DNA from: an uncultured Victivallis sp.
GTDB lineage: Bacteria; Verrucomicrobiota; Lentisphaeria; Victivallales; GWF2-50-93
Direction of reading: 5' to 3'
NCBI GenBank assembly: GCA_964540865.1
Contig: CAZION010000007.1
Coordinates: 17,130-81,129, forward strand
Length of the DNA: 64,000 nt
The notes under the pieces are model-generated. The model searched no databases. It was not told the DNA's origin and worked only from the letters and a program-made list of their open reading frames with translations. This document shows, piece by piece, positions 1 through 17,168 of the stretch. Within the stretch, counting starts at the first letter, position 1. The number at the start of each line of letters is the position of its first letter. Both the position numbers and the translations under genes were made by a program.

Positions 1-477
1 GTCATGCTGTTTACGCCTGCACCCCTTCTCACACGGAGCAGGACATATGAGTCCCAGTGTTTCTGGCAATACGAGATCCTGCTTCGCGACAGTGTATGCC
101 TTTTCCCATTCGCCGGCCTGAATCAGGCGGAGCATGATCGGTATGTTCATTGCAGCTGGACAAATAGCCCTGCATGGACCTTCGCAATCCCCGACATGAT
201 CACTCAAGAGGAGTTCGAGCGACATACGCCTTGCTTCTCTGACCTCATCGCTCCTGGTGTCCACAACCATGCCATCGGAGACTGGCATTGCGCATCCCGG
301 TACAAGCCGGTCAATGCCTTCCACCTTGACTACGCAAACCATGCAAGATGTGTTGTGTTCAAAATCCTCATTATGACATAGTGTCGGGATCTTTATCCCA
401 AGTTTTGCAGCCGCTTCAATTATTGTTGCGGAAGCGGTGACTTCTACGTCTTGTCCGTCTATGGTTAATTTCGGCAT
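1..477 (-). CDS. 5' part of a 2Fe-2S (Fer2_4) + GltD/DPD-type Fe-S flavoprotein (StnC/NsoC-like), running off the window edge
   Basis: Not in ORF track. Manual translation from ATG at 477: MPKLTIDGQDVEV...IPTLC...SCMVC...PGC...LELLLSDHVGDCEGPCRAICPAAMNIP...LGLICPAPCEKGCRR. Open to base 1; starts 4 bp after the upstream gene's stop. Confidence 0.85.
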   Translation of the reverse strand, partial: MPKLTIDGQDVEVTASATIIEAAAKLGIKIPTLCHNEDFEHNTSCMVCVVKVEGIDRLVPGCAMPVSDGMVVDTRSDEVREARRMSLELLLSDHVGDCEGPCRAICPAAMNIPIMLRLIQAGEWEKAYTVAKQDLVLPETLGLICPAPCEKGCRRKQHD

Positions 478-481
478 GTTC

Positions 482-2914
482 CTATCCCACCTCTATCGCT
501 TCCGCAGGGCATGTCTTCTTGCATGCTCCGCATCGCACGCACTTCTTGTCGTCTATTTCATGTTTCTCATATGGCTTCATCGCTATGGCATCCACAGGGC
601 AGATCTGCGCGCATAAAGTGCATCCTATGCATTCGTCGTTTACAGTATATTTAATAAGGGCTTCACATTTTCCTGCAGGGCATTTGCCATTGATATGGGC
701 TTCGTACTCATCGCGATAATGGCGTATTGTGGACAAGACCGGGCTGGGTGCTGTCCGGCCAAGTCCGCAAAGGCTGCTTTTCCTGATCGTCAGGGCTAGC
801 GATTCAAGCTTTTCAATATCTCCAGTTTCTCCCTCTCCCCGGCAGAGGCGTTCCAGAATATCCAGCATACGCCTGGTACCGATTCTACAGGGTGTGCAGC
901 GGCCGCATGACTGATCCTGGGTGAAGGAAAGAAAATAGCGGGCCATATCCACCATGCAGTCGGTGTCATCAAGGACGATGAGCCCACCGGAGCCCATTAT
1001 GGCGCCTTGCGCGGTCAGAGTTTCAAAGTCAATCGGCGTATCGCAGGAGCTTGCCGGAATGCATCCTCCCGATGGACCGCCAATCTGCACTGCCTTGAAT
1101 TTCCTGCCATCTGCGACTCCACCTCCTATCTGTTCAACTATCTGCCTTATCGTGCTCCCCATGGGCACTTCAATAAGACCTCCCCGGTTCACCTTGCCTG
1201 CCAGCGCAAACACCTTCGTGCCTTTGCTTTTCTCAGTGCCTACGCTCGCAAACGCATCTGCACCATTCTGGAAAATCCAGGGAATGTTGGCAAATGTCTC
1301 GACGTTGTTTATGAGCGTGGGTTTTCCTAGAAATCCTTTGTCGGCCGGGTAGGGCGGCCGCATCCGAGGCATGCCTCGCTTCCCTTCCAAAGAGGCAAGC
1401 AGTGCTGTCTCCTCACCGCACACAAAGGCGCCCGCACCCTGCATGATGCGCAACTGCAGCGAGAAGCCAGTGCCAAACAGATTCTCCCCCAAACATCCCC
1501 GTTCCATGCAATGCCGTATCGCTTCCTGGACTCGAATTACGGCCAGCGGATATTCTTCGCGTATGTAAAGGATTCCCTGTCCTGCTCCGACAGCATACGC
1601 TGCAATAATCATCCCCTCAATGATCCGGTAAGGAAAACTTTCCAGTAGCATCCTGTCCATAAAGGCGCCGGGATCACCTTCGTCACCATTTAAGACAATA
1701 TATTTTTCATCGCCTTCTGCAGTCCTGACGCTTTTCCATTTCAGTCCAGTCGGGAAACCGGCCCCTCCGCGGCCCCGCAGTCCGCTTCTGTTGACAATAT
1801 CAATTATCGTATCAGGGCTCAATTCCTTCAGGCAGCGCTGGCTGGAGGCAAAACCGCCATATTTCAGGTATTCATCCAAACTGGTCGGATCAATATTGCC
1901 GCAGTGTTCCAATGCGACATGTTTTTGAAGTCCTTTGAACGCAGTCAGCGAAGGATTACTTGTATGAAGGGCGCGGTTGGCGACAGGTTCCCATACTTCA
2001 TCGGTAAGCAGGCGATCAATGGAGTAATTGAGCGATCTTTTAATCCGCCCCAGCAATCCATGGGAAGGGAAATGGCGCTGGACAATCTGCGAAGCATCCA
2101 GCGGACGTACTTTTGCGTACATCTGTGAAGCCCCCTCGGGAGTTACCACCTCCACCAAGGGCGTATTGTGGCACATCCCGACGCATCCAACCCTTTTCAC
2201 AAAGGCGTTGACCCCATGGTCTGTCAGAGCCTTTTGAAAGGCATCCCTTACATTGCCGGCTCCACTGGCCACGCAGCATGAACCAAGGCCTATGCGGATC
2301 TCCGTCATTCCGGATTTCACGGACGCCTGCGAGGAACCGGCTGGTTTCCTTCCGCCAAGCTCCGACTCATATTTCAAAAAGTCACGGATCACCTGTCCGA
2401 CATTTTCCGGTGTCATATGCCCATAGGTGGTTTCATCAATGACAATTACCGGCGCCAGCGTGCAGCACCCGAGACATGCGACCTTCTCGACTGTAAAGGC
2501 CCTGTCTGGAGAAGTGTCATCATTTTCAGGGATTTCCAATTCCCTGTAAACCGCTTTGATGAGCTTGTCAGAACCTTTGACATGACATGCGGTCCCTACG
2601 CAAATCCTGATAGTGTGTTTTCCGGCGGGCCTCAGTCGGAACTGCTTGTAAAATGTTGCGACTCCCTCTATGCGGGCGGGAGTGATGTCCGTTGTTTCAG
2701 CCAATCGCTGCAAAGCTTCGGACGGCAGGTAGCGCCATTTGCGCTGGAAGGCTTGGAGGATGGCAATAAGGTTTTCCGGCCGGCCTTCCAACTGCCTGAT
2801 GATCTCATCCGCCGCCGAATGAATTTCAGGATTGCTGGATTGCTGGATTGCTGGATTGATGCGTGCATGCAAATCAGGAGGAGCTGCATCAGGAAATGCT
2901 TTGATATTTTTCAA
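482..2914 (-). CDS. Fused NuoE-like + NuoF-like (HydC-HydB / StnA-StnB / BfuC-BfuB) NAD(P)H-binding FMN/Fe-S protein
   Basis: NuoE motifs (VATFY, CVGTACHV, ACLGCC), second thioredoxin-like 2Fe-2S (GSCC...GCVGMC), NuoF motifs (GLRGRGGAGFPTG, DEGDPGAFMD, GAFVCGEETAL, GGPSGG, SCGRCTPCR), C-terminal 2x CxxCxxCxxxCP. TTG start with GGAGG RBS. Confidence 0.92.
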   Translation of the reverse strand: MKNIKAFPDAAPPDLHARINPAIQQSSNPEIHSAADEIIRQLEGRPENLIAILQAFQRKWRYLPSEALQRLAETTDITPARIEGVATFYKQFRLRPAGKHTIRICVGTACHVKGSDKLIKAVYRELEIPENDDTSPDRAFTVEKVACLGCCTLAPVIVIDETTYGHMTPENVGQVIRDFLKYESELGGRKPAGSSQASVKSGMTEIRIGLGSCCVASGAGNVRDAFQKALTDHGVNAFVKRVGCVGMCHNTPLVEVVTPEGASQMYAKVRPLDASQIVQRHFPSHGLLGRIKRSLNYSIDRLLTDEVWEPVANRALHTSNPSLTAFKGLQKHVALEHCGNIDPTSLDEYLKYGGFASSQRCLKELSPDTIIDIVNRSGLRGRGGAGFPTGLKWKSVRTAEGDEKYIVLNGDEGDPGAFMDRMLLESFPYRIIEGMIIAAYAVGAGQGILYIREEYPLAVIRVQEAIRHCMERGCLGENLFGTGFSLQLRIMQGAGAFVCGEETALLASLEGKRGMPRMRPPYPADKGFLGKPTLINNVETFANIPWIFQNGADAFASVGTEKSKGTKVFALAGKVNRGGLIEVPMGSTIRQIVEQIGGGVADGRKFKAVQIGGPSGGCIPASSCDTPIDFETLTAQGAIMGSGGLIVLDDTDCMVDMARYFLSFTQDQSCGRCTPCRIGTRRMLDILERLCRGEGETGDIEKLESLALTIRKSSLCGLGRTAPSPVLSTIRHYRDEYEAHINGKCPAGKCEALIKYTVNDECIGCTLCAQICPVDAIAMKPYEKHEIDDKKCVRCGACKKTCPAEAIEVG
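2829..2858. repeat. Octamer tandem repeat (GGATTGCT)x3.75 inside the 5' end of the NuoEF-like gene
   Basis: Read directly from sequence. Confidence 0.9.
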
Positions 2915-2944
2915 AATGTTTCCTCCCTTTGGAATCAGTGAACA

Positions 2945-2972
2945 GTCGTCGGTCGTCGGTCGTCGGTCGTCG
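2945..2972. repeat. Heptamer tandem repeat (GTCGTCG)x4
   Basis: Read directly; lies just upstream of the NuoEF-like gene RBS. Confidence 0.9.
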
Positions 2973-3052
2973 GAGCGCTGCGCCTCTGCGTCGCCGCGCG
3001 AAACCTCTCAGTCCTCGGCCTACCCTAGAGGGAGAACAAATTCGAAAAAAAC

Positions 3053-3358
3053 TTATGATAGCCTCAGGTAATTCCTGGTTTCCATTTTCCCGTGAAAGAC
3101 ACCGAGAACATCTATTTCATTGTCCTTTTCACGGTAAAGATATGCAATCCTATAGTGTCCATGCAGAATTATTCTTATATGTTTTTTTGAAGGATGCTGA
3201 TAGTTGTAACCAATTTCAGGTAGATTCTGCAGAATTTGAACCTTTTCGTAAATGCCATTGACTGTATTGACGGCTGCAGTAGGATTTTCAGAAGCGATAT
3301 AATGAAAGATATAATTGAGCCAATACTTGGATTCTTCGGTCCAGTTTATTTTGACCAT
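3053..3358 (-). CDS. Type II toxin, RelE/ParE family
   Basis: 101 aa: I.WT..S...L..I..YI..ENP.AA...I...LQNLPEIG...HYRIAY...IDVLGVFHG; overlaps the upstream small acidic ORF. Confidence 0.88.
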   Translation of the reverse strand: MVKINWTEESKYWLNYIFHYIASENPTAAVNTVNGIYEKVQILQNLPEIGYNYQHPSKKHIRIILHGHYRIAYLYREKDNEIDVLGVFHGKMETRNYLRLS

Positions 3359-3534
3359 GACTCGATTTCTCTTTTCATGTTTTCGTTACTGATGAGTCTT
3401 TTGTGCTTGGAATCCTCAAGTCCCTTGTCAATCATTTCGGCAAAGGCCAGCTCACGAAGAATTTCATCGAACGAACTGTCGTCCGGTTGTTCCTCAATGA
3501 TTTTAATCATATTTTCCTTGATAAGTGCAGGCAT
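3346..3534 (-). CDS. Putative antitoxin of the RelE/ParE pair
   Basis: 62 aa: QPDDSSFDEILREL...IDKGLEDS...RLISNE...IESW; overlaps the toxin start. Confidence 0.8.
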   Translation of the reverse strand: MPALIKENMIKIIEEQPDDSSFDEILRELAFAEMIDKGLEDSKHKRLISNENMKREIESWSK

Positions 3535-3827
3535 AAGAATCCTCTTTCAATTTTGTATTGAATATAAATCACACAGGAAGGAAAATCAAGCCCCTGCACT
3601 GCTGAGCAAATGGAGGATTTTCTATAGCAAATAAGTTTCCGGAATTATCAGGGCTGAAGACAGCTTGATGGCTGCCTGTCTTGTAATTTTACGCCGTCCT
3701 TTTTCGTAGTCGCTATGGATATTTCAATACGGGGCGTTTTCACGACTGCCAGCATAATACACCTCAATTGTTATCATTATAATATCGCAATATATAGCTG
3801 TCAATATATCGCATGGCATTTTAATGA

Positions 3828-3938
3828 GGAATTCAATCTAAGTAACACAGGCTTCAGCCTGTTGTTAAATAAAGCGAGAAAAAGAAGAAATTGCAGGCTA
3901 AAGCCCGCATTACCATGTTCAAAAACTTTGAAATTCCT
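3828..3938. repeat. MITE/REP-like element: AGGAATT.CA...TGAAATTCCT ends enclosing a GTAA-type palindrome pair
   Basis: gtaacacaggcttcagcctgt ... caggctaaagcccgcattac; the TGAAATTCCT end motif recurs near 5305, 12395 and 59532. Confidence 0.5.
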
Positions 3939-3943
3939 AAACG

Positions 3944-4225
3944 TCAGGAATAATTTCTCCAGTTTCTGGAAAAATTACTCACACCGACAGGATGATTCCG
4001 CCAGCCACCATCAGGATGATGGCGATTGCTTTTTGCGCCACAAGAGCATTTCATCTCATAGTGAGGTGCGCCGGGCGAAGGATGTAAACACATACCGTAG
4101 TCGAAAGTAATTTCTTCGTTGGCTTTGATCCCTTTCATGGACACCAACACGATCTGACCTTTAATTCCGGCGTTAGGCGAACAACTATGATTTATGAAAT
4201 TGGCCGGAATGAAAAAACAGGGTTT
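3944..4225 (-). pseudogene. SET-domain lysine methyltransferase remnant
   Basis: Reading upstream of the ORF-track start gives ANFINHSCSPNAG...EEITFDY...CSCG (SET and post-SET motifs). An in-frame stop lies just upstream, so the N-terminal half is missing. Confidence 0.75.
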
Positions 4226-4388
4226 TCATTAATACATTGCTGAAACAGCCATAAAAAACGAGATGCAGTTGGCGACATTGAATCAAGGACATTTTAAAGC
4301 ATCTTAGGCTGGCATCAATCTGAAGTGTTTCATTTTGCGGCGACAAGCCTGACCTCAAGTTTGCAAACTATTTCTCCCCTTTGGGAGA

Positions 4389-4440
4389 TCTGCGTCTTAA
4401 TCTCAGCGCACTCTGCGGTAAAGGCATTGAATCCTAACCG
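4389..4440 (+). repeat. 52-bp dispersed direct repeat, copy 1
   Basis: 50/52 identical to 13141-13192. Confidence 0.9.
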
Positions 4441-4512
4441 TAGGCAACGGAAGGGCTTGCTTACGCAATTGACAAATATGAAGGTCAATCATCATATCGT
4501 CCAGTCGGTCAA

Positions 4513-5040
4513 TCACCCACCTGAATGACTCTGGATTAAATTAATAACAATCGCCACAATCAATAAAAAGACGGCGAATGCCGCCAAGGCCATGCGGCTG
4601 TAGCCGGTATGCCTGTATTCCGTGCCGGTTCCGGGCACAATAGGAACCGCAAGTGTATTTTTCAAACATAAAATAAGCACGGTCAGACCGACAAGCAGTA
4701 AGCATGCCCCGAGCCGCGCTTTTACCTGACTGTTGAAATAATTCCGTCTTATCCGCTGATCAGTCGTCTGTATTTCTTTTTTGATTGCTTTGTCTCCTGG
4801 GTTCAGACGATGCTCAGCCACCAGGGCATCCAGTTTCCGGGAATTGACTGAAGACATCGGATCATTTTGCTTCATATCATGGAAGTTCGCCAGAAGAAGC
4901 AAAATTACAGCCATCGAGAAAAATCCGGCGACTATGGCCAGCCTTCGCGCTGTCAGACGGAAAAGCTTACTTCGTATTTCCGTGTCAGTTTGCACTTTTT
5001 TAGTCATCCTTAGCCTCTTTTTCTTTACCACTAAACACAC
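4513..5040 (-). CDS. Hypothetical membrane protein (about 3 TM helices)
   Basis: Three hydrophobic segments around a polar DP...RR.YF loop; same strand as the cluster; likely start is MTKK at 5007. Confidence 0.7.
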   Translation of the reverse strand: MCLVVKKKRLRMTKKVQTDTEIRSKLFRLTARRLAIVAGFFSMAVILLLLANFHDMKQNDPMSSVNSRKLDALVAEHRLNPGDKAIKKEIQTTDQRIRRNYFNSQVKARLGACLLLVGLTVLILCLKNTLAVPIVPGTGTEYRHTGYSRMALAAFAVFLLIVAIVINLIQSHSGG

Positions 5041-5107
5041 AAAACACGTAAGCGTTAAGCTGGGTGCTCATTTCATTCCCCCTGCCAGTTTATCTGGCAG
5101 GAGAAGA

Positions 5108-5178
5108 AGATTGGGGAGCTAATGGCTACGCCTTTAGCCTACCACTCTTTGCTTCCCGTGGGATAAACCCACGGGGGA
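5108..5178. repeat. REP/REPIN-like palindromic element, partial copy related to 12079-12186
   Basis: agattgggg.gcta.tggc...gcc.tagc...cccgtgggataaacccacggg. Confidence 0.7.
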
Positions 5179-5313
5179 GCTAATCTTTCCTGTGAATCTG
5201 TTTTTGAAACAAAATCAAATTCACAGCAAGGTTTGTATTTTTTAATTCTTTTTTTGTTCTTATTTCATAAAATCAATTGTTAAGTTTTTGCGAAGCAAGA
5301 ACTTTGAAATTCC

Positions 5314-6603
5314 TTAGCGTTTAGTTTCGCCTGCGAGCTTAGCTCGCCTAAGATGTTCCATTGGACAATATGAGTGACATCTGCCGCATGAAAAACAGAG
5401 GCCGCGATCTGGAAGGTAGTCCTCCTGTTTTCTTCTGATGGTAAGGGAAATCATACCGAATCCCAGAACAAATCCCAAGTATGCCCCCATAAGCGTTGAC
5501 CCTATGACAAACTGATGTCTGATTTTTGCGGCTTTCGCAAAAAGGTCCGAATCCAAAGCTCCTGTCTGTCTGAATGCCGTTACCAGATCGCCTTGCCAGG
5601 CGCTTTGATTCTTCTCGGCTGAGTTTAGCATCTCGGCTGCTTCCACCGTTTTGTTCAGACGGCTCAACGGCATGCTTGAGTGGTAGCCGGCACAGGCACC
5701 GATTAAAATTAATAAAGGCAGGATAAGCATTAGTGCGGACAGAATTCTTTTTTCCTTTCTGAATTCGCTTTCCATCCGCCCGGTTTTCGGACGCGTAATG
5801 GCTCCGTACGGACAGGCGTTTTCACAGAGATGGCATCTGATGCATTTATCGGGGGTGATCGTCGTGTGCCAGCTGGAAAACTTCGAACATAGGTTCAACA
5901 GAACACCGTACGGACAAGCATATCTGCAATATGGCCTGCCTACAAAAAAAGCCAACCCCACGATGCAAGCAGTCAGAATCAGCACATCGAAGGAGCCATT
6001 TAAACGGTAAATGGAAACAAACGGATCGAACTGGCAGACGATGAATGCGCTGCCGGTCGCCGCCAGCAGGACAGCCAGGCTCAGGTAAACATGGGGCAGG
6101 AACCTCAGAGCCCTGTCCAGCCATTCCGGAACTTTCAGCGGCTTAATCAGGACCGTCTCCTGCAACGCGCCAAGAGGGCATACGGTGGCACAGAAGACTC
6201 TGCCGAAAAAGAGGGCGGAAACCAATGGCAGGACAAAAAAGAGAACGGCCGTCAAAGGCATGAAATAATCGGTGCTGCAGACAGCCAGCGCCATGTTCTG
6301 CAAACTCCCCACGGAGCAGATGCAGCCCTGCTTGTAGAAACCGAAATAAATCACTGAAAACAACGCCAACAGGGACAGGGCTTTGCGTGACCTTCGCCTC
6401 AAGGCGACAACCGCAAGGATGAGGCAGAGACACAGTACGGCGGTATCAAGATATTCAAATACGGCTAAACGCGCGTGGGCATGCTGGACAACAGGGATCT
6501 GATGCTTCGTCTCGTTGAAGTCGGGACGCGGAAAACGGTCCGCACCCGTCCCGTAAAAGGAAATGCCGAACATGATTATTGCTGTTAAGATCAGGATTCT
6601 CAT
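5314..6603 (-). CDS. Polytopic membrane 4Fe-4S binding protein (NapH/MauN/YccM-like)
   Basis: GRVFCATVCPLG, RPYCRYACPYG, CIRCHLCENACP, CFSCGRCHSYCP; many TM helices. Confidence 0.88.
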   Translation of the reverse strand: MRILILTAIIMFGISFYGTGADRFPRPDFNETKHQIPVVQHAHARLAVFEYLDTAVLCLCLILAVVALRRRSRKALSLLALFSVIYFGFYKQGCICSVGSLQNMALAVCSTDYFMPLTAVLFFVLPLVSALFFGRVFCATVCPLGALQETVLIKPLKVPEWLDRALRFLPHVYLSLAVLLAATGSAFIVCQFDPFVSIYRLNGSFDVLILTACIVGLAFFVGRPYCRYACPYGVLLNLCSKFSSWHTTITPDKCIRCHLCENACPYGAITRPKTGRMESEFRKEKRILSALMLILPLLILIGACAGYHSSMPLSRLNKTVEAAEMLNSAEKNQSAWQGDLVTAFRQTGALDSDLFAKAAKIRHQFVIGSTLMGAYLGFVLGFGMISLTIRRKQEDYLPDRGLCFSCGRCHSYCPMEHLRRAKLAGETKR

Positions 6604-7260
6604 TCAGGTTACCTTCTTTGAGGCTTCTTCAGTTTGCAGCCCTTTGAACAGATATGGCTTGTCGGAAGGCAGTCTTACAAAAGCATTTGCAGGGCAGGCC
6701 TTGGCGATGGAACACTGGTTGCAGTTTACGCAGAGGGAGTGATCCACCTGGAGATACAGGCTGCCGTTTCCAAATGTCTGGCATCCCTTCACGCACTTGG
6801 AGCAACCTATGCAGCGTTCCTTGTCGATGGTGTATTCATAATACGGATGCTCTATGAACTTCCTTATCAGCGCATTGGTGGGGCAGAGCTGTTTTTCAGC
6901 AGTTGTTTCAAATTCCATGGTCCCTGGTTTGAAATAGGCGAAGCAGAAGTCGCAATATCCGCAGACATTGAATGCGTGGAAGCATTTTACGGCGGAAGGT
7001 GAAAGCACACATTCCGTGGCGCAGCGTCCGCATTGTATGCATTTGGCGGGATCGAGCTGCCACACGGAACCCTTATACCTGATCTGGCATTTTCCTGAAA
7101 CCATACAATTGGAACAGTCCCTTCCTGGAGGACACTGTGCATGCAAGTCCCTCGAATCAGAGGGGCGTAGCGCCCGTATACCGCAATACCCCAGGAGGGC
7201 AAGAAGGCCTCCTCGAGCAAGCAGTTTTGCGAAATCACGCCTTGAAAACCCGTCTTTCAT
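6604..7260 (-). CDS. Polyferredoxin with twin-arginine-like N-terminus
   Basis: SRRDF followed by a hydrophobic stretch; CIQCGRCATEC, CGYCDFC, CIGCSKCVKGC, CVNCNQC...CP; abuts the next gene. Confidence 0.85.
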   Translation of the reverse strand: MKDGFSRRDFAKLLARGGLLALLGYCGIRALRPSDSRDLHAQCPPGRDCSNCMVSGKCQIRYKGSVWQLDPAKCIQCGRCATECVLSPSAVKCFHAFNVCGYCDFCFAYFKPGTMEFETTAEKQLCPTNALIRKFIEHPYYEYTIDKERCIGCSKCVKGCQTFGNGSLYLQVDHSLCVNCNQCSIAKACPANAFVRLPSDKPYLFKGLQTEEASKKVT

Positions 7261-7297
7261 TTTTCGAAATTCCTATTCCTTGTATTTTTTGCTTTTA

Positions 7298-7472
7298 GTC
7301 AGGCTCTTTGGACTGACCTTGGAGTGCGGAAACTTGTTACCGCCTTGTTCCGCGAAATTCATTTCGCGGTGTTACCTTACTCCGGGACGGAATAAATTCC
7401 GTCGTTAAAGGCGGCAATAAATTGCCGCACTCCAGGTGCGAATTTCGCAATTCGCAATAGATGAATTTCAGA
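7298..7472. repeat. Multi-hairpin REPIN-like element (TGGAGTGC...GCACTCCA), copy A
   Basis: Same architecture as 59341-59505, with compensatory stem changes. Confidence 0.85.
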
Positions 7473-7489
7473 AATACCTGGAGCTTTGC

Positions 7490-8458
7490 CTATTCCGACA
7501 CTGATTTCTCTTTAAAAATACGGATATTGCCTGTGCCTGGATCTATCGCATAGATTATGCCTTTATTATCCACGGCAATGTCACAAGGGGGCTGTCCCGC
7601 CTTAAATGATTCAGGGCCGGCGACCACACCGATGAAATCTCCGGAAGGAGAATATAATTTGATTCTCGGAATGGACTTCTCACTTGTAACTATCCTCCAA
7701 TCCGGACATAATGCGATATGCACCGGATTACAGCAGCCTGAAAATCCTTCTATGCCTGCGGACGGATTGCTCTTCCATACGGATATCAGCTCGCCCGACT
7801 GTGAATAGAACTTGAGACGGTGTCTGCCGGGATCAATCACTGCTAATAGATCATTTTCGCCGGCCGCTACACCGAGATATGGGGAATATATTACTATTCC
7901 GTCATCGCCTGTTTCCTTGTTGGCGCCACCTATCTTGAATCCCTCCTTTTCCGGACTGGCCAAATCCTTCACATGCACCAGCTTCTTCCCGGCATCCGCG
8001 ATAAAGACATTTTTCCCTGTCAGGGCGATTCCCCTTATTATGCTGCCCCTGTCAAAGTTCCAGGATTTTATTTCAATACCGTCTGAATTAAAAACTGAAA
8101 CCTGTGTTGAGAAACCGACAAAAACATTCTTGTCTTCGGACACCGCGATGCACATTGGTCGGGCTTGCAGATTAATTTGCCGCAGTTCCTTCCCGTCGGT
8201 ATCAAAAACCCGTACCTGAGAGTCGCCACCGGCATATATCCTGTTGTCGGGTCCTATGGCGATACATGTCGGAGTTTTAAATCCTGTTGGAATCGGAGGG
8301 AGTTCATTGTAAAGGATGATGTCCTGACTCGTTTTCCGAAATTCGTCCAAGTTGTAAACTTTATCTGCCGAAGAAACGTCAGGCTTCCCTTTCAACGCAA
8401 AATAAATTCCAGTTCCGGCCAGGCAGAGAAGCAGGACCGCTATTGCATAATTCTTCAT
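7490..8458 (-). CDS. NHL-repeat beta-propeller protein, N-terminally anchored or secreted
   Basis: Signal/anchor helix; repeated P..IA.....IY...VFD..G units; GFSGCCNP motif. Confidence 0.85.
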   Translation of the reverse strand: MKNYAIAVLLLCLAGTGIYFALKGKPDVSSADKVYNLDEFRKTSQDIILYNELPPIPTGFKTPTCIAIGPDNRIYAGGDSQVRVFDTDGKELRQINLQARPMCIAVSEDKNVFVGFSTQVSVFNSDGIEIKSWNFDRGSIIRGIALTGKNVFIADAGKKLVHVKDLASPEKEGFKIGGANKETGDDGIVIYSPYLGVAAGENDLLAVIDPGRHRLKFYSQSGELISVWKSNPSAGIEGFSGCCNPVHIALCPDWRIVTSEKSIPRIKLYSPSGDFIGVVAGPESFKAGQPPCDIAVDNKGIIYAIDPGTGNIRIFKEKSVSE

Positions 8459-8561
8459 ATGGAATTCCCATTTTCTTTTACTGCCGAAGCAACTTCGAAA
8501 TTATCTCATATGTGATGATGAATGCTGTAATATGTTGAGCCCATCGATGCTCCGCCAGTTT

Positions 8562-8775
8562 CTGGCACCCATCCAGGGTGCGTTAATTTTAATCTCAATC
8601 CGGAGGTCTACGCGATGCTTCGACCTCCGGCTACTATCTGACAACCCTTCAGGTTGTAAACAAACACGGGCTCAAAATCAAATACAAATGCCCTCTCGAT
8701 AAATTCCTGAGAAAATAAGTGTTGTAGACAGGGCTTTAGCCCGAGAATCTTCGCGGTCTAAAGAGCCGCTCTACT
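8562..8775. repeat. Cluster of intergenic palindromes (REP-like)
   Basis: gcacccatccagggtgc, ccggaggtc...gacctccgg, caacccttcaggttg, gtagacagggctttagccc...gctctac. Confidence 0.6.
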
Positions 8776-8832
8776 TGATCGGCAAAAGTCTTGTTTTTAT
8801 AAAACTGCGAATTTCGCAGTCACGTCTACCCC

Positions 8833-10356
8833 TCATTTCTTTTTCGCGACATCGAGACACTTCATCCTATTCAGGTCTCTTACAAACAACTTGCCGTCCA
8901 CCAGCGTCATAGGTCCCCACGAATCAGGGCCAGGAAGCACTTTTGCCCTGGCAAGCTGAATATAGCCTTTTGTTGTCGCCTCGGCAATGGTGAGCATCCC
9001 ATCGTCATCCATCAGGAAGATCATCCCGTCTGCGATCATCCATGGGCCAATGCCAAAGCGGTTCGGGGAGCCGCTCGCCCATACTTCATTAAGGTCGGCA
9101 TCCATGCATACAAGTTCCTGGCGTGGTTTTGGAAGCACTGCATAGATATGGCCTTCATAGAGAATAGGGGTATGCTGTTCAACTCCGAATTCTTTAGGTT
9201 TCATTGCTTTAAGTATTTTTACCTGGACTTTGCCGTCTGATTCCACAAGTTGCATAAGCTTTGCTTCGCTTCCATAGCCGGCTGTAAACAGGATGCGGTC
9301 TTCGCCGACCGGCAAAGGAGAGGGCGCGATCGTATGCCATTTGAAATCCTGGGTCTCCCAGATTATGCCGCCATCCGAGGCCGATACTCCGACAGCTCCT
9401 TTCGTGCCCGCATAGACATATGTATGCCTCCCCTTGTACGTCATTGGTACGACACTGGCGTGGCTCATCTTTGAACCATGCGGATTCGGGGTCTTCCAGA
9501 TGATCTCGCCGGAGGCGTAGTCAATTGCCATGAGAAGTACATCAGGTGCCCCCGGGGCCAGAATCAATTTCCCGTTCTCAATCAGAGGGCACTGTCCGGC
9601 ATACCAACCAGGTACGGTGGTGCCAAACTGTTCCGCAAGATCCATGCGCCATAGAAAAGCGCCGGTCTCGGCATTAAGACAAGTCACATGGCATTTCGGT
9701 CCAATTCCTATCAGGTAGGGGCCGTCAAGGGCGACTACTGTACGGCTGATTCCGTGATTGCGCTTGATGTCCATGGGATATGAATATCTCCATATTTCCT
9801 CACCATTGTCAAAGGAAAGGCATCTGATGGCATCGCGCTTGTTTTTCTCATCATAATCAAATATGTAAACCCGGCCATCGCGAACTGCCGCCCCGGCATA
9901 TCCCTCTCCAAGCTCCAGCTCCCAGGTTGCAGGGGGGCCGCCTTCCGGCCAGGTGCGGGAGAGTTCCACTGAATCTTTGCCAATCTCATCGCGCCTCACT
10001 CCGCGGAAACAGGGCCATGAATCTTTGGTCTGGCCAGGCTTGCCGTTCCCTTTTTCAAGAGTGGCGCCTTGGGGCATTGTGCGGATGACAGCCGTATCTT
10101 TCTGAGGCACCCCCTCAGTTGTTTCGGATAATTTGCCCTCATCCTTATCCTTTATCACGGCAGTGCTGGATGTCGAGATAGGCGGCAAGTTTTTGTCCAC
10201 GGGCTTTTTCGGCGCGCCGTCCTCTCCTGGAAGCCTGGGAGGCTGAGGTGGATAACTGATGCCGAACTGCCAGTAGGCGAAGACGCAGATGAATGCCAGC
10301 GCTGCTAGCGCCGGCAGAAAAATCGCCATTAGATTTGATTTGCCTTTTTCCGGCAC
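8833..10356 (-). CDS. PQQ-like (BamB-type) beta-propeller protein with N-terminal TM anchor and Pro-rich linker
   Basis: WPCFRG, LGEGYAG, repeated G...W blades, C-terminal DGKLFVRD. Confidence 0.88.
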   Translation of the reverse strand: MPEKGKSNLMAIFLPALAALAFICVFAYWQFGISYPPQPPRLPGEDGAPKKPVDKNLPPISTSSTAVIKDKDEGKLSETTEGVPQKDTAVIRTMPQGATLEKGNGKPGQTKDSWPCFRGVRRDEIGKDSVELSRTWPEGGPPATWELELGEGYAGAAVRDGRVYIFDYDEKNKRDAIRCLSFDNGEEIWRYSYPMDIKRNHGISRTVVALDGPYLIGIGPKCHVTCLNAETGAFLWRMDLAEQFGTTVPGWYAGQCPLIENGKLILAPGAPDVLLMAIDYASGEIIWKTPNPHGSKMSHASVVPMTYKGRHTYVYAGTKGAVGVSASDGGIIWETQDFKWHTIAPSPLPVGEDRILFTAGYGSEAKLMQLVESDGKVQVKILKAMKPKEFGVEQHTPILYEGHIYAVLPKPRQELVCMDADLNEVWASGSPNRFGIGPWMIADGMIFLMDDDGMLTIAEATTKGYIQLARAKVLPGPDSWGPMTLVDGKLFVRDLNRMKCLDVAKKK

Positions 10357-10392
10357 TGGTTCAACCTCTTTGTAATTCCCTCACACCTTAAT

Positions 10393-10509
10393 GGTAACGG
10401 GTCAGTCTTTATCCAGGGCGAGTTAGTCTCGCCGTAGTAGCACAGGCATCTTGCCTGTGTTTTCCCCCGAGCGTCCCGTCCGTCTTCAAAAAAAGACTGA
10501 GCCTTTACC
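10393..10509. mobile_element. Putative MITE with imperfect 18-bp terminal inverted repeats
   Basis: ggtaacgggtcagtcttt versus reverse complement of the right end ggtaaaggctcagtcttt; internal GTAG-type palindrome cacaggcatcttgcctgtg. Confidence 0.55.
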
Positions 10510-10540
10510 CGAATGGCGCTTAGTTGATGCATTTCTTGAG

Positions 10541-10593
10541 GTAGCGCGGGTCTATCTGACCCGCGTTTCCCGGGTCAGATAGACCCGAGTTAC
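10541..10593. repeat. GTAG-type REP doublet
   Basis: gtagcgcgggtctatctgacccgcg ... cgggtcagatagacccgagttac. Confidence 0.7.
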
Positions 10594-10660
10594 TTCTACG
10601 GAAAACCCCAACTGCTCAACAGTTCTCTGGTCTTTTGCAATCAGCTCGAATATTAAAACT

Positions 10661-12001
10661 TCACAGTTTTGTCGGCGGCTCAGTCGCTAACGGCGGTTTG
10701 GACGGCGATGCCGGAGCAATACAGATCAGCCTTTTCAGTGTCCGCACGAAAATGCAACTGTTGGATACTGCGGGTGAGGCGTCAACCGGTTCGCCGAAAA
10801 CAGTCTTACCCAACACCTCCATTGTCTTGTCGGCCTTGAGAATCGTCACCTCGCCGTCGCGGTTGATGATGTAGAGCTTTCCTCCCGCCACGATCGGCGA
10901 AGCGTAGATTTGCCCGTCCAACTCTCGCTCTGCAGCTTTCTTGCCATCACTCACGTTCAGGCAGATCGCAGAGCCAGAAGCAAGAAATACACCGTCACCA
11001 TAGGCGACCGGCGATGCGACTTCCGAAGTGACCTCGGCGTTTTTCCATACGACATGCGTCTTGGTGACGTCGCCAGTTCCATCCGGACGTATAGCCATGG
11101 TTCCGGAAGTGCCCAGCGTGACAATGAGCAGCCCCTTGCTGAAGGAAGGAGAAGGTACAATGTCTGAACACTTGCCATTCACGATCCAGAGCTCGTGTCC
11201 GTCCTTCAGATCATAAGCGGCCACACCACCGCATGAAACTAAAACTATCTGTGGTCCTTTGGCGGTTTCGATGATGAGCGGCGAGCACCAGGACGCCCCC
11301 ATGGTACGTTTGGTGCGCCAGACTTCCTTTCCGGTCTCAGTGTCGAAAGCTACAATAGCCGCCTTTTCATCGTTCTGATCGAATTGTACAAGAAGAAGGT
11401 TTTTGTAAAGCGCCGGCGAGGATGCGTATGCGTAACTTATTTCAGGCAGGCCCAGATCCGCTTTCCACGCCGCCGTACCATCTATATTGAAAGCCGCAAT
11501 GGCACCGGTCGCGAATACAGTAAATACACGTTTGCCATCAGTTGCTGGGGTTGATGGGGCAAGTGTGGTTGTCTCCTCGTCGAAAAGTTCAGGCTTGCCT
11601 TTCAGAGTAACGGCTCCTTTCCAGAGAAGCTTGCCAGATTTGCTGTCGAAACAGAATATGGCGCCCTGATTTTCGCCAGCGCCGGAGACGAACACCTTAT
11701 CTCCACAGACAATGGGTGAACCTGAGCCGGGGAGGGGCAGGTCAGCCTTCCAGAGGATGCCCTTTCCGCTTTTCGCATCCCATGTGACGGCCGTATTCGC
11801 ATCTGCGGCAACTGCCTGACTGCCGGCTCCGCGGAAAGCAGGCCAGTCGGAAACTGCGTCAGACTTTACTGCATCATCGCCAGCGACGATGAAATTAGCC
11901 TGCGCCAGAACTGTCAAGATCAGACACAGCGATATCCTCTTCATTTTTGCAGCATTACCTCTATCAAATGCAATTTTCATCTTCCGCAATTTGCAGTTCA
12001 T
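10661..12001 (-). CDS. Secreted PQQ-like beta-propeller protein
   Basis: WPAFRG, PGSGSPIV, STPATDG, YASSP, WCSP, YASP repeats; signal peptide (likely start MKRIS at 11944). Confidence 0.88.
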   Translation of the reverse strand: MNCKLRKMKIAFDRGNAAKMKRISLCLILTVLAQANFIVAGDDAVKSDAVSDWPAFRGAGSQAVAADANTAVTWDAKSGKGILWKADLPLPGSGSPIVCGDKVFVSGAGENQGAIFCFDSKSGKLLWKGAVTLKGKPELFDEETTTLAPSTPATDGKRVFTVFATGAIAAFNIDGTAAWKADLGLPEISYAYASSPALYKNLLLVQFDQNDEKAAIVAFDTETGKEVWRTKRTMGASWCSPLIIETAKGPQIVLVSCGGVAAYDLKDGHELWIVNGKCSDIVPSPSFSKGLLIVTLGTSGTMAIRPDGTGDVTKTHVVWKNAEVTSEVASPVAYGDGVFLASGSAICLNVSDGKKAAERELDGQIYASPIVAGGKLYIINRDGEVTILKADKTMEVLGKTVFGEPVDASPAVSNSCIFVRTLKRLICIAPASPSKPPLATEPPTKL

Positions 12002-12078
12002 TGTCTATTCCCTATTGTTTCTTGGATTTTTGGTTTAACATTTTAGAGGCTCCATTCACTAATCGTCTCATAGTTGTT

Positions 12079-12186
12079 TAGACCCCACCGACCTTGCGTC
12101 GGTGGTGAATAGATTGGGGGGCTAGGTGGCGCTCGCCCTAGCATCCCAATCTTATTCACCAACGGGATAAACCCGTTGGGGTTTCT
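12079..12186. repeat. REPIN-like nested palindrome (tagacccc...ggggtttcta)
   Basis: Long inverted arms with internal hairpins; related to 5108-5178. Confidence 0.75.
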
Positions 12187-12447
12187 ATTCTATTTCGAGA
12201 CGATTAATAACATATATCACGTTCTCGCAAGATATTAATTCCCGATGAAAAGATTTGTTTAAATTGGGCGGCTTTGCCGCAACTTTAAATAATCTGAACC
12301 TCGAACATTCAATCCGCCGCGGCGGAAACTTCCAACTTCGAATGAATTCGGTTTTTAATTCGATGTTCAAAATTGAAGTTGAATGTTGTCTCTCTGAAAT
12401 TCCTTAATGTTGAATTAGGCGGACATGGGCCGCAACTATGAACACGA

Positions 12448-12957
12448 CTACTTAGGCATTTCGGCGGTCATGGAACCTTTGCGGTTGCGGTTACCGCCTA
12501 TTTCGTTGTAGGTGCACTGTGCAATGCCGTCGTCACCGTACTTTCCGGAGAACTCGAAGGATCCGTTGGCGCTTCCTCCGCTCGCTTTGCCGTCGCCACT
12601 GATCTGCGTTTTCAGATCGGTCTTGATCGTTCCAACATAGTTCAGGGGCTTGCCATCCCAACTGGATTCATAGACTGCGTCATAGGTGCCATCCCCTTTC
12701 ATTTTGAGTTTCGCCGACCAGCTGCTCTTCTTGTTCCCGAAATTGCAGGTACCCTTGATGGAAGTGACTTCGGCGCCTTTGCCTGCAGTCTTGGCCTGTT
12801 CGGCAAAGACCGTAGAAACAGCCAAACCCGACACCAGGCATGCTCCGCCTAGAAGCAAAGATGAGAGACAATACGCGACGGTTTTCCGGTTCATCAGACT
12901 CTTCAGCATTTTCATTTGACAGCCCTTTCTGTTTAGGGAACCTCTAAGAATTCGCAT
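12448..12957 (-). CDS. Hypothetical secreted beta-rich protein
   Basis: Signal peptide after a likely start at 12915 (MKMLKSL); Gly/Ser/Thr-rich mature part with 2 Cys. Confidence 0.65.
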   Translation of the reverse strand: MRILRGSLNRKGCQMKMLKSLMNRKTVAYCLSSLLLGGACLVSGLAVSTVFAEQAKTAGKGAEVTSIKGTCNFGNKKSSWSAKLKMKGDGTYDAVYESSWDGKPLNYVGTIKTDLKTQISGDGKASGGSANGSFEFSGKYGDDGIAQCTYNEIGGNRNRKGSMTAEMPK

Positions 12958-12973
12958 TTTCAGAGGTTCCCTT
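12934..12973. repeat. Inverted repeat AGGGAACCTCT...AGAGGTTCCCT (IS-end/MITE-like)
   Basis: Read directly; half-site ttttagaggttccct also near 32356. Confidence 0.6.
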
Positions 12974-13140
12974 TAGTGATAAAATAGTATATCAATCCAC
13001 TCTATTCAATGAACAGGGAAATTTTCCGTTCCTTCGCGAAACCCCTCAGTCTCCTCCTGGGACTACCACATAGAGCACAGAGAAAAGAATTTGATTAAGT
13101 GGGCATGAAAAAAACAATCCTCCTTCTGCCCTTTGCGCAC

Positions 13141-13192
13141 TCTGCGTCTTAATCTCAGCGAACTCTGCGGTAAAGGGATTGAATCCTAACCG
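13141..13192 (+). repeat. 52-bp dispersed direct repeat, copy 2
   Basis: 50/52 identical to 4389-4440. Confidence 0.9.
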
Positions 13193-13344
13193 CAAAGACC
13201 GCAAAGGGAAGACGCGAAGTTCGCAGAGTATTTATCAGATGGCGTATTATGAATGCTTATCAAGTCTTGACATAGACGAAAAATGCAATTAACTTCCCGA
13301 AAATATTCTTTATCCACTTTTATACTTACAGAAAAGGAATCAAT

Positions 13345-13665
13345 ATGCAAGTTGTCATCGATGGAAAAGATATCGAAGTGCTCTCAAGTGACAGGAACAT
13401 TGTCGATTTAGCTGACAGGGCCAGGATAAAAATCATAAATCCCTGCAGTGAAAACGGAAAAACCGATGGTTGCTGCAGAAGCTGTGTAGTGGAAATCAAC
13501 GGTGAACAGAAATTTGCATGTACTACTAAACCTAAGTCTGGAATGAATATTGTCATATCCCGGGACGATCTGAAGCTATTACGAAAAATTCGCCTTCAGG
13601 AATTCAAGGAATTTAAGAAAAAGAATAAGGCCGGTTCATGCTGCTCAAGCAAAGGCTGCTGCTGA
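13345..13665 (+). CDS. Small stand-alone 2Fe-2S (Fer2_4-like) protein with Cys-rich tail
   Basis: IDGKDIEV...NPC...GCCRSCVVEI...FACTT; tail GSCCSSKGCC; AAGGA RBS. Confidence 0.8.
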   Translation: MQVVIDGKDIEVLSSDRNIVDLADRARIKIINPCSENGKTDGCCRSCVVEINGEQKFACTTKPKSGMNIVISRDDLKLLRKIRLQEFKEFKKKNKAGSCCSSKGCC

Positions 13666-13702
13666 TATAGAACTGTGAAACAAAGACCAAAGGAGATTAT
13701 TT

Positions 13703-15061
13703 ATGAATTCTAAATTCCGTCTTGCGATATTCGCAATTGTCTGTCTGTTTGCGATGAAAGCTGCCGCCGTTGATGCGCCTGCCAACCTGCCGGCGACCGA
13801 CTGGCCGCAATGGCGCGGACCAACTGCAACAGGCGAGGCCGCCCCGGATGCAAAACCACCGTTGTCATGGTCGGAAGACAATAATATCCGTTGGAAAGTT
13901 GCCATCCCGGGAAGAGGACGTTCGACGCCGATTATCTGGAAAGACCGCATCTTCATTACGACGGCGGTGCAGACTGACAAGCCGGTGGATCCGGAGAAAG
14001 TCAAAGCTGCCATGGATGCCATTCCTGAATTTGCACGCAAAGGCGCACACGTCCCTGAAAAAGTGCTTCAGTTTGTTGTCATGGCCCTTAAGCGCAGCGA
14101 CGGCAGCGTGATGTGGCAGAAAACTGTCTGCGAACAGGCGCCGCTGGCCGGAACCCATGCCGACGGCAGCTGGGCTTCCGGATCACCTATTACCGACGGT
14201 GAGTCGCTATATGCGTATTTCGGATCCTACGGACTCTACGCCATGACTCTGGACGGCGAAAAGAAATGGAGCAAGGAGCTCGGTACATTCAAGACAAAAG
14301 CCAATTTCGGGGAAGGTGTGTCGCCAGTTCTCTGCGGGGATTCGCTGATCATAAACCAGGACTTTGAAGGGCCTTCCTTCATTGTGGCTCTGGATCGGAA
14401 GACGGGCGAGGAGAAATGGCGGGTTAAACGAGATGAAGCCACTTCCTGGTCCACCCCGCTAATTATCCAACATGGAGGCAAACAGCAAATCGTCGTATCC
14501 GCCACCAAGCGCATCCGCAGCTATAATCCGGAAGACGGCGCGCTCCTATGGGAAATCGGAGGCATGACCGGTAATGTGGTCCCATGTCCAATTACGGATG
14601 GCAGCTTGGTGTTTTGCATGAGCGGTTTCCGGGGAAATGCGCTTTTCGCAATCAAGCTTGCTGCCGCAGTCGGCGAGCTGGCTGACAAACCAGAGGCGAT
14701 GGCTTGGAGCAGTAAGACCAATACATCATACGTACCTTCACCAGTGATCAGTGGCGGCCTGCTCTACTACATTAAGACAAATGAAGGGTTTCTGACCTGT
14801 GCTGATGCAACGACAGGCCAGGTGAATTATGCTGCCAAACTCGATGGCTTGCAGACGGTTTTTGCTTCCCCTGTTGCCGCTGGCGGACATTTGTATGTTC
14901 CTGGTAAAAACGGTCTGACCCTGGTATTGAAGCTCGGACCTAAGTTCGAATTGATTGCCAGCAACCAGCTTAATGATGAAATCATATCATCCCCGGCCGT
15001 GGTCGGAAATGAGATCTTCTTGCGAGGCGACAAAAGTCTATATTGTATAATGGGGAGATGA
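13703..15061 (+). CDS. Secreted PQQ-like beta-propeller protein
   Basis: Signal peptide; DWPQWRGP, GRSTPIIW, SPITDG, SWSTP, FASP, IFLRG. Confidence 0.9.
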   Translation: MNSKFRLAIFAIVCLFAMKAAAVDAPANLPATDWPQWRGPTATGEAAPDAKPPLSWSEDNNIRWKVAIPGRGRSTPIIWKDRIFITTAVQTDKPVDPEKVKAAMDAIPEFARKGAHVPEKVLQFVVMALKRSDGSVMWQKTVCEQAPLAGTHADGSWASGSPITDGESLYAYFGSYGLYAMTLDGEKKWSKELGTFKTKANFGEGVSPVLCGDSLIINQDFEGPSFIVALDRKTGEEKWRVKRDEATSWSTPLIIQHGGKQQIVVSATKRIRSYNPEDGALLWEIGGMTGNVVPCPITDGSLVFCMSGFRGNALFAIKLAAAVGELADKPEAMAWSSKTNTSYVPSPVISGGLLYYIKTNEGFLTCADATTGQVNYAAKLDGLQTVFASPVAAGGHLYVPGKNGLTLVLKLGPKFELIASNQLNDEIISSPAVVGNEIFLRGDKSLYCIMGR

Positions 15062-15105
15062 TACGCTGATCTGGAAACGAGGCTTCTAGAACCTACAAAA
15101 TAGAA

Positions 15106-16260: not shown

Positions 16261-16316
16261 GGCATAATCCTTTCTTGACTAATTGTATATTATAATTATA
16301 CTATTGACGACAGTAA

Positions 16317-17144: not shown

Positions 17145-17168
17145 AGAAATGAATAATGGAAAGAAGTT

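Follow-up and report, generated by a model that had tools for sequence, protein, structure and literature searches.

Here, we report a conserved gene cluster in a 64,000-nucleotide stretch of DNA (the window) from an uncultured Victivallis sp. (GenBank assembly GCA_964540865.1, contig CAZION010000007.1, positions 17,130 to 81,129 of the forward strand). The cluster is one copy of a real, widespread bacterial gene system that encodes a putative Bfu-type flavoprotein core, a polytopic membrane protein resembling NapH, a polyferredoxin with a twin-arginine translocation (Tat) signal, and three propellers with signal or anchor sequences. In the reading that we favor, with a probability of roughly 0.5, electrons from NADH and ferredoxin would pass by a heme-free iron-sulfur (Fe-S) route to the periplasmic propellers, one of which carries an invariant Cys-Cys pair as the candidate redox site.

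The system lies at window positions 1-12001 as eight co-directional, intact open reading frames (ORFs), all on the minus strand:

10661-12001, minus strand: prop1, 446 aa; exported propeller of the eight-blade BamB/PQQ_2 type with an N-terminal signal sequence (PQQ_2, E 3.9e-30)
8833-10356, minus strand: prop2, 507 aa; membrane-anchored eight-blade propeller (PQQ_2, E 7.6e-18)
7490-8458, minus strand: NHL propeller, 322 aa (Pfam NHL); N-terminal membrane anchor, GCCNP at residues 241-245
6604-7260, minus strand: Tat polyferredoxin, 218 aa; Fer4 motifs, SRRDF twin-arginine motif
5314-6603, minus strand: NapH-like polytopic membrane Fe-S protein, 429 aa (Fer4_5, E 6.4e-16)
4513-5040, minus strand: small membrane protein, 175 aa; about three hydrophobic segments, no family by Pfam or NCBIfam
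482-2914, minus strand: NuoE-NuoF fusion (BfuC-BfuB, HydC-HydB), 810 aa; C-terminal 2x[4Fe-4S] domain
1-477, minus strand: first 159 aa of a BfuA-like (GltD-like) Fer2_4/Fer4_20 subunit; the full ORF of 522 aa lies at L002:16038-17606

All eight genes had been listed in a first-pass annotation made from the window alone, and all were confirmed in place, as were two motifs that it had singled out, the GCCNP pair of the NHL protein and the SRRDF signal of the ferredoxin. The ferredoxin stop directly abuts the start of the NapH-like gene, and the BfuA-like gene begins 4 nt past the NuoEF stop. The nearest relatives of the NHL protein are found in Victivallales and Lentisphaeria metagenome genomes.

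Species genomes were searched with an NHL-family profile, which gave at least 581 confirmed relatives. The best 80 of these were taken as the locus set (flanks of up to 10 kb per side), and flanking genes were called by tblastn with the window proteins (thresholds of 40 to 500 bits, depending on the protein). Main gene counts rest on the 45 of the 80 loci in which the sequence 3' of the NHL gene extends for 9 kb or more, and a second count set comprised the 57 loci in which it reaches 3.5 kb or more. Two genome samples were also used: 151 genomes of the window's phylum, in which related genomes are not independent and counts are descriptive only, and 301 genomes of Planctomycetota (the phylum of G151, the genome of Pirellulales locus L014). 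Domain calls were made with Pfam and NCBIfam scans of the window proteins. Beyond the cluster, sequence was scanned over 17 kb of the contig left of the window (G000:C7, numbered separately from window positions and cited as L002 coordinates) and over ~12 kb to the right of the cluster.

Among the 45 loci, prop1 (45/45), the NapH-like gene (45/45), the ferredoxin gene (44/45), prop2 (40/45), the NuoEF-type gene (39/45) and the GltD-like gene (35/45) recurred beside the NHL gene, and weak tblastn matches (at least 40 bits) to the small membrane protein kept their position just 3' of the NapH-like gene in 31/45. The second set gave 55/57 for the ferredoxin and 56/57 for the NapH-like gene. The common order, prop2-NHL-ferredoxin-NapH-like-(small membrane protein)-prop1-NuoEF-GltD-like, is kept in Planctomycetota, Bacteroidota, Verrucomicrobiota, Kiritimatiellia, Spirochaetota, Armatimonadota, Chlorobiota, and others; prop1 stands between the NapH-like and NuoEF genes in most genomes and upstream here, as in loci L004 and L013. 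Gaps elsewhere are short: the ferredoxin to NapH-like gap has a median of 0 nt (50 nt or less in 40/49), and the NuoEF to GltD-like gap has a median of 2 nt. One locus (L028) holds the NHL gene alone, with no partner genes.

Co-occurrence extends to whole genomes. In the phylum sample, the NHL gene was present in 10/151 genomes; the short GltD-like form matched end to end in 7 of these 10, was found in an eighth by a separate look and in a ninth as a partial match, and occurred in just one NHL-negative genome (G140). The system was also found in 43/301 sampled Planctomycetota genomes. Its carriers include cultured Bacteroidota (Maribellus, Marinifilum, and Labilibaculum), so it is open to bench tests. 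Both of the first-pass expectations that bear on this point are borne out: the genes co-occur, in kept order, across many phyla, and the module appears uncharacterized, with no description of the cluster found in a full-text literature search whose reach excluded most subscription journals and supplements. The supplementary tables of PMC9304861 and PMC8238504, outside that search, might include these genes among unassigned clades.

The flavoprotein half is assigned, from domain content and alignment, to the Bfu type, with the fusion as BC core and its partner as A subunit. The fusion carries the domains 2Fe-2S_thioredx, Complex1_51K, SLBB, NADH_4Fe-4S, and Fer4. Its residues 204-809 match residues 5-594 of the 602-aa NfnB (9n5u_B, E 1.5e-212) and also align end to end with 9bov_B, StnB (8oh5_B), and HydB (7q4v_B), and residues 36-178 form a NuoE/HydC-type domain (PF01257, E 1.4e-50) with invariant C105, C110, C147, and C151. 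The flavin mononucleotide (FMN)/NADH motifs GRGGAGFPTG and GDEGDPGAFMDR are conserved in 40 orthologues together with all cluster Cys, including those of the C-terminal two-cluster domain, where the enzyme probably exchanges electrons with ferredoxin. The FMN/NADH site, the C-terminal two-cluster domain, and the NuoE/HydC-type [2Fe-2S] domain are shared with NfnABC, StnABC, and HydABC. In contrast to NfnABC and StnABC, B and C are fused here, and the flavoprotein genes stand beside genes for membrane and periplasmic proteins.

The BfuA-like subunit finds its best PDB matches in A chains (9bov_A, 8oh5_C, and 9n5u_A). It shares with StnA and NfnA an N-terminal [2Fe-2S] site (Fer2_4, E 5.6e-17; C34, C45, C48, and C62), Fer4_20 clusters, a flavin adenine dinucleotide (FAD) fold with GxGxxG, and two later Cys clusters, all invariant in 31 orthologues. 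Residues 3-289 correspond to 9bov_A 5-290 and residues 276-514 to 9bov_A 425-671, so that ~134 aa of the NADP(H)-binding domain (NfnL/GltD-like fold) of 9bov_A and 8oh5_C are without counterpart, and no second GxGxxG-type motif was found among the conserved positions. The subunit is also short (522 aa against 1,172-1,178 for the solved A chains), ending near chain residue 671 and lacking the Fdh/NuoG-like C-terminal domain. The first-pass annotation had seen a HydBC/Bfu-like core, which the end-to-end B alignment and the HydC-type and A1-type [2Fe-2S] sites bear out; its "Stn-like" label for the flavoenzyme falls, since an A subunit without the NADP(H)-binding domain does not make a transhydrogenase, even on a Bfu-type core. 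In NfnABC, the chain runs FAD-A7-A6-A3-A2-A1 to the [B1-FMN-C1] site, with NADPH bound beside the FAD, according to the portion of PMC11829005 available. In the available portion of a Bfu family survey (PMC9304861), the membrane forms are of Mbh and Nuo type only, and 17 BfuB clades are unassigned.

The membrane half is built around two Fe-S proteins. The ferredoxin has 16 invariant Cys, equivalent to four [4Fe-4S]-type motifs, and an RRxF-type twin-arginine motif in 54/54 homologues. The window protein has four further N-terminal Cys (C43, C49, C52, and C58) found in ~4% of homologues. In 30/48 loci, a separate mini-protein ORF with an RR signal and at least four Cys (C-x5/6-C-x2-C-x5/6-C) stands between the NHL and ferredoxin genes; its four Cys reappear on the window ferredoxin, and the window protein is thus a fusion of mini-protein and ferredoxin. 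The NapG/MauM family models gave no match to the ferredoxin at E ≤ 1e-3, though the Tat signal and four-cluster architecture are present.

In the NapH-like protein, two CX3CP motifs (C138/C142-P and C226/C230-P), two ferredoxin-type clusters (C254/257/260/264 and C403/406/409/413), and three further Cys (C94 and C96 in GCxC; C190, followed by DPF) are invariant in 61 sequences. Judged by the hydrophobic segments and the charges around them, the CX3CP motifs and both clusters lie on the predicted cytoplasmic side and C94, C96, and C190 at the predicted periplasmic face. The protein scores far below the cut-offs of the curated families (TIGR02163 NapH/MauN, 48.4 bits against 213.05; NF007013, 39.5 against 234) and thus appears to lie outside them, while its architecture is that of NapH; sequence search found no solved homologue.

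As in NapGH, NosGH, and MauMN, the gene for a Tat ferredoxin with four [4Fe-4S] motifs immediately precedes that for a polytopic protein bearing two CX3CP motifs and two ferredoxin-type clusters. Relative to NapH, the membrane protein here carries two more helices and the three additional invariant Cys, its second cluster is split, and in place of the usual partners the genes here stand with propellers and a Bfu-type flavoprotein; no NapA, NapC, NosZ, or MauAB was found by Pfam or NCBIfam in the window genes or in the flanking sequence scanned on either side. As far as the available portion of PMC8238504 (Meheust et al., 2021) goes, NapH-family proteins are regarded as quinol dehydrogenases, and NapH-like modules are proposed to serve oxidases and reductases alike. 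In the flavinylated NapH-like systems, NosR, and PceC described there, a NapH-type module also joins electron pools to extracytoplasmic enzymes, and some of these systems feed the eight-blade propeller ExaA. They are defined, in the same portion, by an extracytoplasmic FMN-binding domain plus ApbE, whereas the Tat polyferredoxin occupies that place here; neither FMN_bind nor ApbE matched any of 20 proteins from in and around the locus, a scan that for ApbE did not extend to the whole genome.

On the periplasmic side, the NHL motif F-x-G-C-C-N-P (Cys242-Cys243) is invariant in 81/81 homologues, against a mean column identity of 37%, and this vicinal pair is a probable redox site. CC was read in 82/82 motif occurrences (loci L003-L084), none of which had selenocysteine in place of the first Cys. 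A metagenome pattern scan for such a selenocysteine variant gave 3 matches, of which zero were homologous, and 45 NHL matches in the 43 Planctomycetota genomes, a narrow sampling, held one in-frame TGA, away from the Cys pair. The AlphaFold2 model (predicted local distance difference test [pLDDT], 93; predicted template modeling score [pTM], 0.86) is a six-blade propeller behind an N-terminal helix. Tat-type signals occur in two homologues of the first alignment (P0016 and P0070), consistent with a periplasmic location, and Sec-type anchors occur in most. A search of the ESM Atlas returned clusters labeled "NHL repeat" and "hypothetical" only. Complex prediction of Tat ferredoxin residues 36-218 with NHL residues 30-322 scored 0.14 against a mark of 0.32, which is evidence neither way.

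Prop2 is the best-conserved periplasmic part: C179, C256, C500, and H299, together with G202, S204, and R205 of the KRNHGxSRT motif, are invariant in 46 sequences, and K198 of that motif is conserved at 0.9 or more in 63. Its AlphaFold2 model (pLDDT, 87.4) consists of an N-terminal helix, a disordered linker (residues 36-85), and eight blades. The closest fold is BamB (TMt ~0.7), a likeness of modeled fold only and not of family membership; tetrathionate hydrolase (6l8a; TMt 0.53) is weaker and a lead only, and the first pyrroloquinoline quinone (PQQ) alcohol dehydrogenase appears at rank 45. "PQQ-like", the first-pass name for prop1 and prop2, is correct for their PQQ_2 type, which is of the BamB/PQQ_2 kind, and fails for the enzymes: TIGR03075 (PQQ enzyme) gave 35.5 bits for prop1 and 26 for prop2 against a cut-off of 480, which argues against PQQ-dependent dehydrogenases. 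The BamB model TIGR03300 gave 83 and 25.8 bits against 285. A 772-aa protein (P0122) is a natural fusion of prop2 (43% identity) and NHL (35% identity) with GCCNP retained. P0122 is without the NHL membrane anchor, and its residue at prop2 Cys256, elsewhere invariant, is His.

Read together, these features suggest the following route. NADH would be oxidized at FMN, reduced ferredoxin would enter through the C-terminal clusters, and both inputs would be combined in the Bfu core; the low potential of the route would follow from this combination. Electrons would leave by the Fe-S and FAD branch of the A subunit, which keeps its Fe-S chain and FAD and has lost its pyridine-nucleotide domain, so that the third partner is probably a protein, with the NapH-like protein, through its cytoplasmic [4Fe-4S] clusters, as the candidate. 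They would then cross the membrane without heme, aided by the Cys motifs at both faces, reach the Tat ferredoxin, and end on the anchored propellers, where the NHL Cys-Cys would be the likeliest redox-active site, working with prop2. We favor the direction from cytoplasm to periplasm; topology, docking, direction, and chemistry are all drawn from domains, conservation, and gene order. Our best guesses for the acceptor are a disulfide, a persulfide, another sulfur-type bond, or a group on a cyclized terpenoid glycolipid, the predicted product of neighboring genes.

The Rnf complex links NADH and ferredoxin through membrane Fe-S and flavin subunits, with cofactors reaching the periplasmic side. 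No RnfA/D/E/G homologue is present here, and the route, unlike that of Rnf, would end on periplasmic proteins and not return to the cytoplasm. The first-pass proposal of a module joining propellers to a cytoplasmic Bfu-type core stands in gene content, gene order, and co-occurrence across many phyla, and loses its Stn label and its "trans-envelope" reach, as the evidence spans the cytoplasmic membrane only and no outer-membrane part was identified.

A bolder version is offered tentatively, as one that we would not expect to hold in full: a heme-free, quinone-independent Fe-S wire through a NapH-type protein, by which a confurcating Bfu enzyme would deliver electrons near -400 mV to the periplasm, where a cofactor-less pair of NHL and prop2 would perform a new kind of reduction. 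Its target could be an exported cyclic terpenoid glycolipid, the product of the linked genes, or an environmental sulfur or disulfide compound. If the proposed route is correct, this would be the first Bfu-type flavoenzyme with a membrane conduit, instead of a soluble substrate, as third partner. It would also give a handle on heme-free transmembrane electron transfer by NapH/NosH/NosR-type proteins, make low-potential reducing power exportable to the periplasm, and imply that propellers with a vicinal Cys pair and no cofactor can carry out chemistry. With an environmental sulfur or disulfide compound as acceptor, fermentative bacteria of sediments and lakes, from many phyla, would have a new electron sink or a new form of respiration.

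The first pass took in only about half of the conserved system, and the rest of this supercluster lies to the left of the window. The first-pass annotation had advised inspecting the contig left of base 1 and would have counted a known catalytic subunit there against its proposal. Pfam and NCBIfam showed no Mo, NiFe, FeFe (H-cluster), or heme subunit in the 17 kb of left flank or in the ~12 kb scanned on the right, an outcome in favor of the proposal, and the left flank carries instead the following genes (L002 coordinates):

14895-15716: Fe-S protein, 273 aa, two-cluster (Fer4_273)
13708-14898: radical S-adenosylmethionine (SAM) enzyme, weak HpnH similarity (E 1.5e-9)
12101-13765: DUF116-polyprenyl synthase fusion
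10793-11941: AAA_14/DUF4143 ATPase, not in the conserved set elsewhere, probably an insertion
9679-10647: prenyltransferase-beta-like protein
7562-9511: class II terpene-cyclase-like protein, DxDD-type motif DADDTA kept
5738-6967: third propeller, prop3
4400-5710: GT4 glycosyltransferase
3654-4352: ATP-binding cassette (ABC) ATPase
269-3583: MacB/FtsX-type permease, 1,104 aa

By domain content, these genes appear to make and export a cyclized terpenoid glycolipid. Within flanks of up to 10 kb, at least one gene of this terpenoid/ABC module stands beside the core in 32/80 loci, as follows: ABC ATPase 17 (matches that may partly be unrelated transporters), cyclase 12, DUF116 synthase 11, GT4 11, MacB 11, prenyltransferase-like 10, Fe-S protein 8, and radical SAM 5. 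In the 2.2-Mb genome G089, the whole module and the core form a single 27-kb co-directional cluster. The full-length DUF116-polyprenyl synthase was found in 9/10 NHL-positive and 4/141 NHL-negative genomes of the phylum sample. It was not found in 3/5 core-bearing genomes of other phyla, and three genomes hold it without the NHL gene; neither module therefore strictly requires the other. The terpene cyclase and ABC exporter genes that recur beside the core also suggest a new envelope lipid.

Hopanoid clusters contain shc, the radical SAM gene hpnH, the glycosyltransferase gene hpnI, and the exporter gene hpnN. The module here shares their logic of a polyprenyl or squalene-type precursor, a class II DxDD cyclase, a radical SAM enzyme, a glycosyltransferase, and a dedicated exporter. 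It differs in its exporter, an ABC system of MacB/FtsX type, in its synthase, which is fused to a Cys-rich DUF116 domain, and in the apparent lack of squalene synthase genes; the cyclase scores 99 bits against the squalene-hopene cyclase model (cut-off, 431). The same synthase fusion was noted earlier for Psta_0175, with no function assigned (PMC5898192). Prenylation of the NHL Cys-Cys by the prenyltransferase-beta-like protein was set aside because that protein is without a signal peptide while most NHL homologues go out unfolded via Sec-type anchors.

Several observations weigh against the proposed route. A PDB search with the NHL model returned generic NHL domains only, and the prop2 and NHL models resemble generic propellers only, with no cofactor site recognized. 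The mostly Sec-type NHL anchors speak against an Fe-S cofactor on the Cys-Cys. Only gene order suggests that the flavoprotein docks on the NapH-like protein. NuoEF is missing within 10 kb in 6/45 loci; of five genomes of such loci that were searched, three hold the short GltD-like gene on another contig and two gave no GltD-like match at E ≤ 1e-40, so the membrane and propeller core may run without the flavoprotein, for example from quinol, as in NapGH. Finally, the two halves are parted in the window by a 1.6-kb AT-rich spacer (2915-4512; 38.5% G+C in 3001-4000) that the first-pass layout, correct in genes and order, had missed along with its ParE toxin-antitoxin pair. It contains:

3053-3358, minus strand: ParE-family toxin gene
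3346-3534: antitoxin-like ORF, 62 aa, overlapping the ParE gene
3944-4150: 68-aa gene fragment resembling the end of a SET-domain protein, no Pfam match
3804-3776, minus strand: sigma-70-like site TTGACA-17-TATAAT, 12/12 consensus

The distance, the toxin-antitoxin pair, and the promoter-like site between the halves make a single transcript doubtful here. A look for RNA runs that contain window positions 482-8458 found none.

Most genes are separated by spacers of 230-370 nt. The spacer at 7261-7489 holds a ~150-nt dispersed element (38 genome matches, 70-89% identity). As RNA, this spacer has a strong fold (-78 kcal/mol, z -7.6); Rfam gave no family in 1-13500. The toxin-antitoxin insertion and the dispersed repeats loosen the operon in this genome, and the tie between the membrane half and the flavoprotein half, as read from gene order, depends on other genomes. 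Contigs of four DNA runs (likeness 90) matched in short pieces only; one contig each in X1 and X2 joins 3016 to 3622, passing over the toxin-antitoxin pair, and no conclusion is drawn from these joins. In metagenome contigs, depth over the spacers near 2830-3230, 3640-4440, 4850-5650, 8485-8890, 10100-10900, and 11720-12100 was 10 to 100 times that over genes. An inverted repeat in the prop1/prop2 spacer (10538-10596), whose 26-nt arms are 88% complementary and stand 7 nt apart, may act as a terminator or attenuator or belong to a repeat element.

The alternative that survives best, which we nevertheless judge unlikely, is that the locus comprises co-regulated units that are not wired together. 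A quinol-fed pair of NapH-like protein and Tat ferredoxin would serve the propellers, and the flavoprotein would be purely cytoplasmic, where it could, for example, feed low-potential electrons to the terpenoid module, namely to its radical SAM enzyme, Fe-S protein, and DUF116 domain. The quinol dehydrogenase role held for the NapH family and the loci and genomes in which NuoEF or the GltD-like gene was missing fit this arrangement, as do the flavoprotein genes that adjoin the genes for Fer4_273, radical SAM, and DUF116-polyprenyl synthase here and in L013. Elsewhere, however, NuoEF and the GltD-like gene mostly follow directly after the membrane and propeller genes, with the terpenoid genes on the other side or on another contig. 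The A subunit is moreover without a soluble-substrate domain and hence needs a protein partner, and the two invariant cytoplasmic clusters of the NapH-like protein are not obviously needed by a pure quinol oxidase.

Two further schemes, alike improbable in our view, keep a chain of Fe-S proteins and change its use. In one, electrons would flow inward: the propellers would oxidize a low-potential periplasmic donor, and the Bfu core would split the electrons to NAD+ and ferredoxin, as characterized Bfu enzymes do with electrons from H2, formate, or NADPH. An all-[4Fe-4S] chain is reversible, and the proposal that NapH-like modules serve oxidases as well as reductases leaves room for this. A cofactor-less propeller that oxidizes a low-potential donor has no known precedent, though; no metal-cofactor maturation gene is in the cluster, and a thiol/disulfide site would suit reduction more than oxidation of a donor near -400 mV. 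In the other, the system would assemble envelope lipid, with BamB-like scaffold propellers handling the terpenoid glycolipid and the Fe-S chain keeping periplasmic Cys reduced or aiding tailoring. Its appeal lies in the terpenoid/ABC genes beside the core, the joint cluster of G089, the synthase distribution in the phylum sample, the BamB-like prop2 fold, and the retained DADDTA of the cyclase. Set against these are the core genomes of other phyla in which the synthase was not found, the three synthase genomes without the NHL gene, and the probable cost of an eight-subunit, ~20-cluster route as a housekeeping thiol reductant. A chance neighborhood of unrelated genes, which the wide spacers, inserted toxin-antitoxin pair, and dispersed repeats of this copy might suggest, is already contradicted by identical order in dozens of loci of many phyla, natural fusions, and co-occurrence across genomes, and can be given almost no weight.

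To the right of the cluster, the window continues with the following genes:

12448-12957: 169-aa exported protein between prop1 and its paralogue, no family, unmatched in related loci
13703-15061, plus strand: PQQ_2 propeller, a prop1 paralogue (27% identity), with orthologues in 5 related loci
15106-18017: URO-D-like gene flanked by two AraC-type regulators
18129-22679: 1,516-aa protein with a weak GH2 sugar-binding-domain match only

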